A stretch of DNA of 64,000 nucleotides from a phage: the sequence record PZ452578.1, one strand, 5' to 3'. The notes under the pieces were generated by a model. That model did not search any database and was not told the origin of the DNA. It saw only the letters and a list, made by a program, of their open reading frames with translations. Of this stretch, positions 44,535-45,362 are shown in pieces. A program made the position numbers and the translations under genes. Numbering within the stretch: the first letter of the stretch is position 1; every line of letters begins with the position of its first letter.

Positions 44535-44610
44535 TGGTCGAGGCAGTAGGAATCGAACCTACGACCTAGGACTTAGAAGGTCCTTGCTCTTCCTTCTGAG
44601 CTATGCCTCG
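44535..44610 (-). tRNA. tRNA-Arg (anticodon UCU)
   Basis: Hand-folded cloverleaf: acceptor CGAGGCA/UGCCUCG, anticodon loop CUUCUAA, T-loop UUCGAUU, encoded CCA. Confidence 0.8.
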
Positions 44611-44614
44611 GATT

Positions 44615-44689
44615 TGGCGGACGTGATAGGATTCGAACCTATAACCAATCGCTTAACAGGCGATCGCTCTGCCATTGAGCTACACATCC
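44615..44689 (-). tRNA. tRNA-Asn (anticodon GUU)
   Basis: Hand-folded: acceptor GGAUGUG/CACGUCC (one G-U), anticodon loop CUGUUAA, T-loop UUCGAAU, encoded CCA. Confidence 0.75.
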
Positions 44690-44693
44690 AAAT

Positions 44694-44780
44694 TGGTGGG
44701 GAGTGATGGAGTCGAACCACCCGAGTCGCAATGACAATGGATTTACAGTCCACACCGCTACCTCTACGGGATAACTCCCC
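44694..44780 (-). tRNA. tRNA-Tyr (anticodon GUA), type II with long variable arm
   Basis: Hand-folded: acceptor GGGGAGU/ACUCCCC, anticodon loop CUGUAAA, long variable arm, T-loop UUCGACU, encoded CCA. Confidence 0.75.
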
Positions 44781-44789
44781 TAATTAATT

Positions 44790-44864
44790 TGGTGGCCCTG
44801 GGTGGAATTGAACCACCATCTGGCGATTATGAGTCGCTTGCTTGAACCTTCCAGCTACAGGGCC
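44790..44864 (-). tRNA. tRNA with CAU anticodon (Ile2/lysidine-type or Met)
   Basis: Hand-folded: acceptor GGCCCUG/CAGGGCC, anticodon loop CUCAUAA, T-loop UUCAAUU, encoded CCA. Confidence 0.7.
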
Positions 44865-44865
44865 T

Positions 44866-44941
44866 TGGTGCTGATTGACGGAATCGAACCGCCGACCTTC
44901 TCATTACAAGTGAGTTGCTCTACCTACTGAGCTAAATCAGC
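44866..44941 (-). tRNA. tRNA-Thr (anticodon UGU)
   Basis: Hand-folded: acceptor GCUGAUU/AAUCAGC, anticodon loop CUUGUAA, T-loop UUCGAUU, encoded CCA. Confidence 0.8.
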
Positions 44942-44946
44942 AAAAC

Positions 44947-45036
44947 TGGCGGAGGCGATAGGATTTGAACCTATGAGTCGCCGGAGCGACTGCCGGTTTT
45001 CAAGACCGGTGCATTAAACCACTCTGCCACGCCTCC
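44947..45036 (-). tRNA. tRNA-Ser (anticodon UGA), type II
   Basis: Hand-folded: acceptor GGAGGCG/CGCCUCC, anticodon loop CUUGAAA, long variable arm, T-loop UUCAAAU, encoded CCA. Confidence 0.8.
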
Positions 45037-45038
45037 AG

Positions 45039-45112
45039 TCTCCATACAAGGATTTGAACCTTGGACCTCCTGATCCCAAATCAGGCGCTCTACCAAACTG
45101 AGCTACACGGAG
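45039..45112 (-). tRNA. tRNA-Pro (anticodon UGG)
   Basis: Hand-folded: acceptor CUCCGUG/UAUGGAG, anticodon loop UUUGGGA, T-loop UUCAAAU; CCA not encoded. Confidence 0.75.
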
Positions 45113-45122
45113 TAAATTAAAT

Positions 45123-45196
45123 TGGAGCGGATAATGAGAATCGAACTCACATCATCAGATTGGAAGTCTGAGGTAATACCATTATACGATATCCGC
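45123..45196 (-). tRNA. tRNA-Gly (anticodon UCC)
   Basis: Hand-folded: acceptor GCGGAUA/UAUCCGC, anticodon loop CUUCCAA, T-loop UUCGAUU, encoded CCA. Confidence 0.8.
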
Positions 45197-45201
45197 AAAT
45201 T

Positions 45202-45288
45202 TGGTGCGAGAAGTGGGACTCGAACCCACAAGGAAATCATTCCGCAGCATTTTAAGTGCTGTGCCTTTACCAATTTGACCATTCTCGC
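45202..45288 (-). tRNA. tRNA-Leu (anticodon UAA), type II
   Basis: Hand-folded: acceptor GCGAGAA/UUCUCGC, anticodon loop CUUAAAA, long variable arm, T-loop UUCGAGU, encoded CCA. Confidence 0.8.
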
Positions 45289-45289
45289 G

Positions 45290-45362
45290 CTGGGAATAAA
45301 GGACTCGAACCTTTGCATCCTGGAATCAAAATCCAGTGCCTTACCAACTTGGCTAATTCCCA
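45290..45362 (-). tRNA. tRNA-Gln (anticodon UUG)
   Basis: Hand-folded: acceptor UGGGAAU/AUUCCCA, anticodon loop UUUUGAU, T-loop UUCGAGU; CCA not encoded. Confidence 0.8.

Follow-up and report, generated by a model that had tools for sequence, protein, structure and literature searches.

A ten-gene phage tRNA array that very probably represents the segB-free tRNA cluster of Tequatrovirus

Introduction

Is a phage tRNA array that includes genes for tRNA-Tyr and tRNA-Asn an enlarged version of the phage T4 set, or is it T4 that departs from the usual arrangement? The question is raised by the ten-gene transfer RNA (tRNA) array at positions 44535-45362 of a 64,000-nucleotide (nt) phage sequence (record PZ452578.1; this whole stretch is referred to below as the window). 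An initial annotation, made from the sequence alone, described the array as adding Tyr(GUA) and Asn(GUU) to the T4 set. The answer we favor is the second. The array is very probably the ordinary tRNA cluster of Tequatrovirus phages that lack the gene segB, a type known from RB3, RB1, T2L and RB27, in which ten tRNA genes, the small stable RNA genes rnaD and rnaC and a terminator are encoded on one strand; in T4, a cassette carrying segB occupies the same place. The cluster is already known, having been sequenced and annotated for RB3, RB1 and T2L in 2005-2008, and it has little weight as a discovery, given that it is present in hundreds of genomes and has been studied since that time. It does affect how T4 is used for comparison. 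The textbook reference would represent the atypical state at this locus, and differences from T4 here would reflect a homing-endonuclease cassette and not tRNA gain by the window phage. The locus is also relevant to work on bacterial defenses that cleave tRNA, for which a role of T-even tRNA-Tyr has been demonstrated and roles of tRNA-Asn and tRNA-Thr(UGU) are possible.

Gene content of the array

We identified exactly ten tRNA genes in the window using ARAGORN, all of them minus-strand genes within 44535-45362. In order of transcription their anticodons specify Gln (UUG), Leu (UAA), Gly (UCC), Pro (UGG), Ser (UGA), Thr (UGU), a CAU tRNA, Tyr (GUA), Asn (GUU) and Arg (UCU), with spacers of 0, 5, 10, 1, 5, 1, 9, 4 and 4 nt between successive calls. 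The initial annotation had given the same ten genes, order, anticodons and coordinates, all of which ARAGORN and Rfam confirmed without reassignment of any anticodon. Nine of the ten genes score 59-74 bits with the Rfam tRNA model (gathering score 29).

The array begins with tRNA-Gln at 45289-45362 (67.4 bits; 88% identical to the T4 gene and 73/73 to that of RB3) and tRNA-Leu, of class II, at 45202-45288 (59.3 bits; 87/87 positions identical in T4, T2, T6 and RB27). These are followed by tRNA-Gly at 45123-45196 (65.8 bits; 74/74 in T4), tRNA-Pro at 45038-45112 (66.8 bits; 99% identical to T4) and a second class II gene, tRNA-Ser, at 44947-45036 (62.6 bits). tRNA-Thr is located at 44866-44941 (72.9 bits; 96% identical to T4) and the CAU tRNA at 44790-44864 (59.9 bits). 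tRNA-Tyr (44694-44780), also of class II, is absent from T4, and tRNA-Asn (44615-44689), with the highest score of the array (74.1 bits), is absent from both T4 and T6. The last gene, tRNA-Arg at 44535-44610 (70.4 bits), is a T2-type allele.

The 3' CCA is encoded by eight of the ten genes, the exceptions being those for Gln and Pro. The Ser and CAU genes are among those with an encoded CCA, unlike the T4 Ser and Ile genes.

The same array in related phages

The region is 95-97% identical to that of many T4-like coliphages (Tequatrovirus), with the best match to Shigella phage ESh16 (96.7%) and 95% identity to RB27. The array is on the early-gene strand, with e.8 on the rnaC-rnaD side and the trna.x open reading frames (ORFs) and ipI on the other, and RB27 has the same neighbors. 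The RB27 record (KM607000) and the RB3 tRNA cluster entry (AJ884578) both list these ten tRNAs in this order, with rnaD and rnaC after them. Across 44186-45402, the window is identical to RB3 at 1202 of 1217 positions (98.8%). Individual tRNA genes range from 72/76 to 90/90 identical positions; nine of the ten have at most two differences and six have none. The differences from RB3 are small, amounting to 4 nt in the gene for Thr (72/76) and 2 nt in that for Arg. RB27 is distinguished by a tRNA-Gln with the T4-type anticodon stem-loop. Beyond the terminator, the window and RB27 each have an extra ORF of 157 amino acids (aa), which RB3 lacks.

This type of cluster has been described before. The RB3 entry belongs to the study of Brok-Volchanskaya et al. 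(2008), which reported that the tRNA regions of T2L, RB1 and RB3 share high homology with that of T4 but lack segB and its flanks (PMC2330249). It is also widespread, as 398 phage records span at least 80% of the 828 base pairs (bp) of the array (top match phage PE37, 99.8%), and the ten-tRNA haplotype is 95-100% identical across hundreds of isolates. Tyr and Asn are found next to each other in 396 phage records, and segB at full length in 126, counts that are biased by which phages get sequenced. All four features by which a segB-free cluster can be recognized were found in the window: the location, the gene order, the absence of segB together with an intact tRNA-Asn gene, and T2-type alleles of the CAU and Arg genes.

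Comparison with T4 and the segB cassette

The T4 record (NC_000866) lists Gln-Leu-Gly-Pro-Ser-Thr-Ile, segB, Arg, rnaD and rnaC. The site, between e.8 and trna.2/ipI, is that of the window, and so is the gene order, except that T4 has segB in place of Tyr and Asn. The T4 Leu, Gly, Pro and Ser alleles are 97-100% identical to those of the window and the Thr allele is 96% identical, and T4 tRNA-Gln has a different anticodon stem-loop. T4 Ile(CAU) and Arg, at only 63% identity each, are different alleles. The window tRNA-Arg is 97% identical to the genes of T2, RB27 and RB3 and 63% identical to those of T4 and T6. Thus, the initial observation that the first seven tRNAs and the last match T4 holds for their order, but not for the alleles of the CAU and Arg genes. 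Similarly, Tyr and Asn had been placed where T4 has its small stable RNAs and segB; this is correct for segB, whereas rnaD and rnaC lie 3' of tRNA-Arg in both phages. Comparison with the tRNA sets of other T-even phages, which had been proposed as a check, was extended to T4, T2, T6, RB3 and RB27: Tyr and Asn are absent from T4 and both are present in T2, RB3 and RB27.

The boundaries of the differing segment are sharp in blastn alignments. Similarity to T4 breaks at 44853, twelve nt into the CAU gene, and at 44538, at the end of the Arg gene, and both flanks align to T4 at 92-98% identity. The 314 bp in between (44539-44852, minus strand) constitute a T2/RB3-type cassette with the 3' 63 nt of the CAU tRNA, Tyr, Asn and Arg, and have no detectable similarity to T4 DNA. 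In this position T4 has 845 bp, comprising the remainder of its tRNA-Ile gene, segB and a tRNA-Arg of its own. We did not identify segB in the 64-kb window by tblastn with SegB. The sole match, about 17 kb away, was a minus-strand ORF of 239 aa (26715-27434), a distant GIY-YIG (seg-type) homing endonuclease match that is 27% identical to T4 SegB across 167 aa and is not segB.

Published crosses explain how one state may be converted to the other. The preferred 27-bp SegB site sits within the tRNA-Asn gene of T2L, RB1 and RB3, and crosses of T4 with T2L exclude about 1250 bp of T2L DNA with the Met, Tyr, Asn and Arg genes, initiated by SegB cleavage at this site (PMC2330249). The breakpoints at 44853 and 44538, and the Met(CAU)/Tyr/Asn/Arg segment between them that T4 lacks, match this result. 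The tRNA-Asn gene of the window is identical to those of T2, RB27 and RB3 (75/75), and this whole-gene identity to RB3 and T2 implies that the preferred site is present here too. A copy of the SegB motif (GATTCGAAC) was found in tRNA-Asn at 44630-44638. The motif, RAWTSGAAC, is not enriched in the window as a whole (seven matches versus 6.4 expected by chance), although five of the seven are in T-arm sequences of the array. Given a tRNA-Asn gene identical to those of T2 and RB3, the window phage should be a recipient of segB homing, and in mixed infection would lose its CAU-Tyr-Asn-Arg cassette. T4 differs in that a cassette of the GIY-YIG homing endonuclease gene segB, with its own Ile and Arg alleles, occupies the place of the CAU 3' part, Tyr, Asn and Arg. 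From the frequency of records and the known direction of homing, the segB-free array is probably the older state and T4 carries a mobile cassette in its place. The proposal that Tyr and Asn were added to the T4 set is thus probably backwards, considering the 396 records versus 126 and the conversion of this array to the T4 state by segB homing in crosses (PMC2330249).

Identity of the CAU tRNA

A CAU anticodon may belong to tRNA-Ile2, elongator tRNA-Met or initiator tRNA-Met. The gene is labeled tRNA-Met in GenBank records of relatives and in the 2008 paper on T-even tRNA regions (PMC2330249), and the initial annotation left the choice as Ile2/Met. The positive determinants for lysidine formation by TilS include C4-G69 and C5-G68, while TmcA recognizes elongator tRNA-Met by C27-G43, C30-G40 and G44 (PMC2500205). 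The acceptor stem of the window tRNA (GGCCCUG...CAGGGCC) provides both C4-G69 and C5-G68. Its anticodon arm (AGCGA-CUCAUAA-UCGCC) has A27/C43, G30-C40 and A44, so the TmcA determinants are absent. Initiator features (a 1-72 mismatch and three G-C pairs at the bottom of the anticodon stem) are also absent, with G1 and C72 paired. Fifteen consecutive nt of the anticodon stem-loop are identical to E. coli ileX. Codon usage agrees with Ile2, as AUA is enriched 4.7-fold in ORFs of the window relative to a sample of E. coli genes and AUG is not (0.92-fold). We therefore rejected both elongator and initiator Met on the basis of identity determinants and codon usage, and the Ile2 half of the earlier assignment stands. 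The gene most likely encodes a lysidine-modified, AUA-reading tRNA-Ile2 and not a tRNA-Met. It is identical to the genes of T2, RB27 and RB3 (75/75), nearly so to that of rV5 (74/75), and 63% identical to T4 tRNA-Ile.

The tRNA-Tyr cloverleaf

tRNA-Tyr, which has a long variable arm, encodes its CCA and scores 30.2 bits with the Rfam tRNA model, just over the gathering score. It scores 34.4 bits with the tRNA-Sec model, for which the threshold is 47. We aligned five tRNA-Tyr sequences (from the window, T6, rV5, a T5-like phage and E. coli) and obtained an RNAalifold consensus in which the acceptor, anticodon, variable and T arms are predicted, with pairing retained despite two-sided changes in seven of 20 pairs. 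The window gene matches the tRNA-Tyr annotated in RB27 and RB3 at every position (87/87 each) and differs little from those of T2 (86/87), T6 (85/87, 98%) and rV5 (84/87). The T6 tRNA-Tyr has been detected by northern blot and is functional (PMC13096335). A false-positive call and a Sec tRNA are ruled out by the Sec score below 47, the GUA anticodon, the covariation, and the annotation and expression of orthologs. Covariance-model support, whose failure had been named as a refutation of the two cloverleafs that T4 lacks, was obtained for both Asn (74.1 bits) and Tyr (30.2 bits plus covariation), and both anticodons stand.

Downstream RNAs and the transcription unit

The array is followed on the minus strand by the genes of two small stable RNAs. 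rnaD (species II) at 44414-44533 adjoins the 3' side of tRNA-Arg, and is identical to T4 at 102 of 119 positions and to RB3 at 117 of 121. It has the same position in the T4, RB27 and RB3 annotations. rnaC (species I) at 44267-44407 is identical at 137 of 139 positions to T4 and at 140 of 140 to RB3. Neither RNA matched an Rfam family at an E-value of 1 or less. Near its 3' end, rnaC has a perfect T-arm-like element (CCGGGUUCGAAUCCCGG) that also fits the published SegB cleavage motif (44282-44290). A hairpin resembling an intrinsic terminator was found by a terminator scan at 44195-44218 (minus strand; a 10-bp stem with seven GC pairs, then TTTTT), and this terminator-like structure may end the tRNA/rnaD/rnaC unit.

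By homology with T4, the array would be transcribed as a single unit from upstream promoters, with host RNase P and 3' trimming enzymes releasing the tRNAs from the transcript. The host would have to add CCA to Gln and Pro only, as it is encoded in the other eight genes. Maturation should consequently depend less on host CCA addition than in T4.

Mosaic relatives and exchange between phage families

T-even relatives differ from one another by single-gene exchanges, and the window has the ten-tRNA version, with no endonuclease gene in the array. T2 (AP018813) has CAU and Asn alleles identical to those of the window, and Tyr (99%) and Arg (97%) alleles that are close. It has nine tRNAs, with an ORF in place of Thr, and a 351-nt ORF where the window has rnaD and rnaC. 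T6 (AP018814) combines Tyr (98% identical to that of the window) and segB with T4-type Ile and Arg, and lacks Pro, Ser and Asn. T6 also has an apparent Pro/Thr chimeric gene (2643-2717 of the T6 stretch compared) that is annotated as tRNA-Thr but was not called by ARAGORN. A homing endonuclease gene replaces tRNA-Pro in ESh25 (1209-1859 of the stretch compared), and ECO07P3 carries eleven tRNAs, the additional one being His(GUG), located between Asn and Arg (781-856 of the stretch compared).

Some of the genes have close counterparts beyond the T-even phages. In rV5, an unrelated Vequintavirus, the CAU (74/75) and Tyr (84/87) genes are close to those of the window, whereas Thr, Ser and Arg are only 66-75% identical. 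The variable arm and T arm of a T5-like tRNA-Tyr are identical to those of the window, and E. coli tRNA-Tyr is identical at only 60 of 87 positions. These patterns of similarity suggest that particular tRNA genes have been exchanged between phage families.

Possible roles of the tRNA genes

Codon use was compared between 93 ORFs of the window (called by a simple longest-ORF rule; 18,586 codons) and 42 annotated E. coli K-12 genes (14,790 codons). The most enriched codons are AGA (7.7-fold), AUA (4.7-fold), UCA (3.5-fold), GGA (3.45-fold), AGG (3.3-fold), AAU (3.15-fold), ACA and ACU (3.1-fold each), UAU (2.7-fold) and UUA (2.6-fold), and eight of the ten tRNAs of the array read one of these ten. 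The three most over-represented amino acids are Tyr (1.83-fold), Lys (1.81-fold) and Asn (1.55-fold). The tRNAs would thus read A/U-rich codons that are used two to eight times more by the phage than by the host, and codon supply is plausible as a general rationale for Tyr and Asn. The initial suggestion that these two genes track codon usage agrees with the enrichment of AAU and UAU, but does not explain the difference between the window and T4, which is equally AT-rich yet has neither gene.

A further role of tRNA-Tyr may be in countering host defense. In E. coli B88, the Septu system cuts tRNA-Tyr within its variable loop (Chihara et al., 2026; PMC13096335). T6 is rescued when its tRNA-Tyr is overexpressed and sensitized when its tRNA region is deleted; T4, without tRNA-Tyr, is strongly restricted and T2 is resistant (PMC13096335). 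The T6 tRNA-Tyr is itself cleaved and works by dosage (PMC13096335). The same principle applies to T5-like tRNA-Tyr and retron-Eco7 (Azam et al., 2024; PMC11555353), and a screen of a phage tRNA library found that tRNA-Tyr genes rescue from PtuAB and tRNA-Thr(UGU) genes from P2 OLD (PMC12445682). The window has an intact, decodable tRNA-Tyr(GUA) with a supported cloverleaf and 85/87 identity to the rescuing T6 gene, as a counter-defense tRNA of this kind should. By analogy with that 98%-identical gene, tRNA-Tyr would also replenish the tRNA-Tyr pool when the PtuAB nuclease of host Septu or retron-Eco7 destroys tRNA-Tyr. The idea of resistance to host anticodon nucleases, raised in the initial annotation, is in this sense upheld in spirit for Tyr by the T6 result (PMC13096335), but the cut is in the variable loop and not in the anticodon. 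For Asn, the relevant nuclease may be AriB of PARIS, which cuts E. coli tRNAs between positions 40 and 41, beside a UAAU motif; its targets are Lys(UUU), Thr(UGU) and, with lower efficiency, Asn(GUU) (PMC12409363). The window tRNA-Asn has U36-A-A-G39-C40-G41 where the host has U-A-A-U-C-C, and thus differs at positions 39 and 41, which is no more than suggestive of escape from AriB.

These two lines of evidence lead to competing explanations for the retention of the genes. Codon supply as the sole reason, with Tyr and Asn kept for a UAU- and AAU-rich, AT-rich proteome beyond the capacity of the host tRNA pool and with no anti-defense role, seems unlikely. The strong representation of Tyr and Asn (with Lys) among amino acids, of UAU and AAU among codons, and of cognate codons for eight of the ten tRNAs is what it would require. 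However, T4 is just as AT-rich and grows well with neither gene, which means that supply fails to account for their presence or absence among close relatives. Moreover, these anticodons are already represented in E. coli by several tRNA-Tyr and tRNA-Asn genes, so that the phage genes add no new decoding capacity, and a defense-related phenotype has been published for the T6 ortholog of Tyr (PMC13096335). Counter-defense as the main selected function is a tentative possibility to which we give somewhat less than an even chance. Tyr would act against PtuAB (Septu, retron-Eco7), Thr(UGU) and Asn against AriB (PARIS) and P2 OLD, and the phage Asn would have evolved escape from AriB. In its favor are the action of T6 tRNA-Tyr against Septu (PMC13096335), the rescue by phage Tyr and Thr(UGU) genes in the library screen (PMC12445682), the inclusion of Thr(UGU) and Asn(GUU) among AriB targets (PMC12409363) with the host difference at 39 and 41 in the window Asn, and the 97-99% identity of Tyr and CAU to the genes of the unrelated rV5, which suggests exchange of useful alleles. 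But the array lacks tRNA-Lys(UUU), the main AriB target, so bypass of PARIS by the array alone is not possible. The T5-like tRNA-Asn retains the host UAAUCC, so the changes at 39 and 41 are no general signature of resistance, and T6 tRNA-Tyr is not resistant to cleavage.

An extension of the counter-defense idea is that Tyr(GUA) and Asn(GUU), with His(GUG) in some relatives, form a mobile module of GUN-anticodon tRNAs swapped among unrelated virulent coliphages, and that the phage Asn changed positions 39 and 41 to escape AriB of PARIS or an undescribed nuclease. We consider this improbable; if true, Asn would be a second anti-defense tRNA of T-even phages beside Tyr. It is also quite unlikely, if a little less so, that the array is mainly the product of selfish-element turnover, in which homing genes insert in tRNA genes and drag flanking alleles, leaving array content largely a historical accident and the accessory tRNAs nearly neutral. 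The replacements of single tRNAs are of the kind expected from this (segB for Asn in T6 and for Tyr and Asn in T4, an ORF for Thr in T2, an endonuclease gene for Pro in ESh25, and the extra His in ECO07P3). Many tRNA genes have a T-arm sequence within which SegB cuts, and the tRNA region has been described as non-essential for phage development (PMC2330249). Nevertheless, hundreds of isolates retain the ten-tRNA haplotype at 95-100% identity, the tRNA set fits the most enriched codons too well for accident, and a selectable phenotype is known for Tyr (PMC13096335).

Several points count against the reading that we prefer, a segB-free cluster transcribed as one unit that supplies tRNAs for enriched codons and a tRNA-Tyr active against Septu. 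A sigma-70 promoter scan of 43400-47400 gave 11 matches, versus 12.0 expected from shuffled sequences, and no promoter was assigned; transcription and processing of the array are deduced from homology with T4. No more than 42 genes make up the E. coli codon reference, and ORF calling in the window was heuristic. If protection works by dosage, a single-copy Tyr gene may protect only partly, and the escape route of T6 is segB-linked amplification of its Tyr gene, whereas the window phage has no segB with which to amplify. Finally, the greater age proposed for the segB-free array is drawn from record frequency, with its sequencing bias, and from homing direction, not from a phylogeny.

Neighboring genes and minor observations

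Beyond rnaC, within 43631-44221, is an insertion of 555 bp between two direct copies of a 36-nt repeat (43631-43666 and 44186-44221), by which the terminator hairpin is duplicated. It includes the 157-aa ORF mentioned above (43671-44144, minus strand), which belongs to PHROG 2280 (function unknown) and has no Pfam match. The insertion is present in RB27 and not in T4 or RB3, and looks like a small gene cassette inserted at the terminator. On the other side of the array, between tRNA-Gln and the trna.2 homolog, is a minus-strand ORF of 171 aa (45449-45964; PHROG 2290, function unknown), also without a Pfam match. It is found in RB27 and T2, and T4 has none. In searches of the flanking ORFs against Pfam and PHROGs, all families matched were of unknown function.

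The top of the anticodon stem is mismatched in both the Thr (A27/A43) and CAU (A27/C43) tRNAs, and T4 tRNA-Thr has C27-G43 in this position. The anticodon stem-loop of tRNA-Gln is CUGGA-UUUUGAU-UCCAG in the window and UAGCA-CUUUGAC-UGCUA in T4, T6 and RB27; T2 has the latter form with one mismatch. Compensated swaps at three stem pairs and C-to-U changes at positions 32 and 38 separate the window form from the other, with no differences in the remainder of the gene. For the window allele, IMG/VR yielded only two further contigs in an exact-match scan. A stem-loop specific to the window is ruled out, as this is the majority allele, found in 290 records (at least 99% identity) versus 152 (90-95%) with the other.

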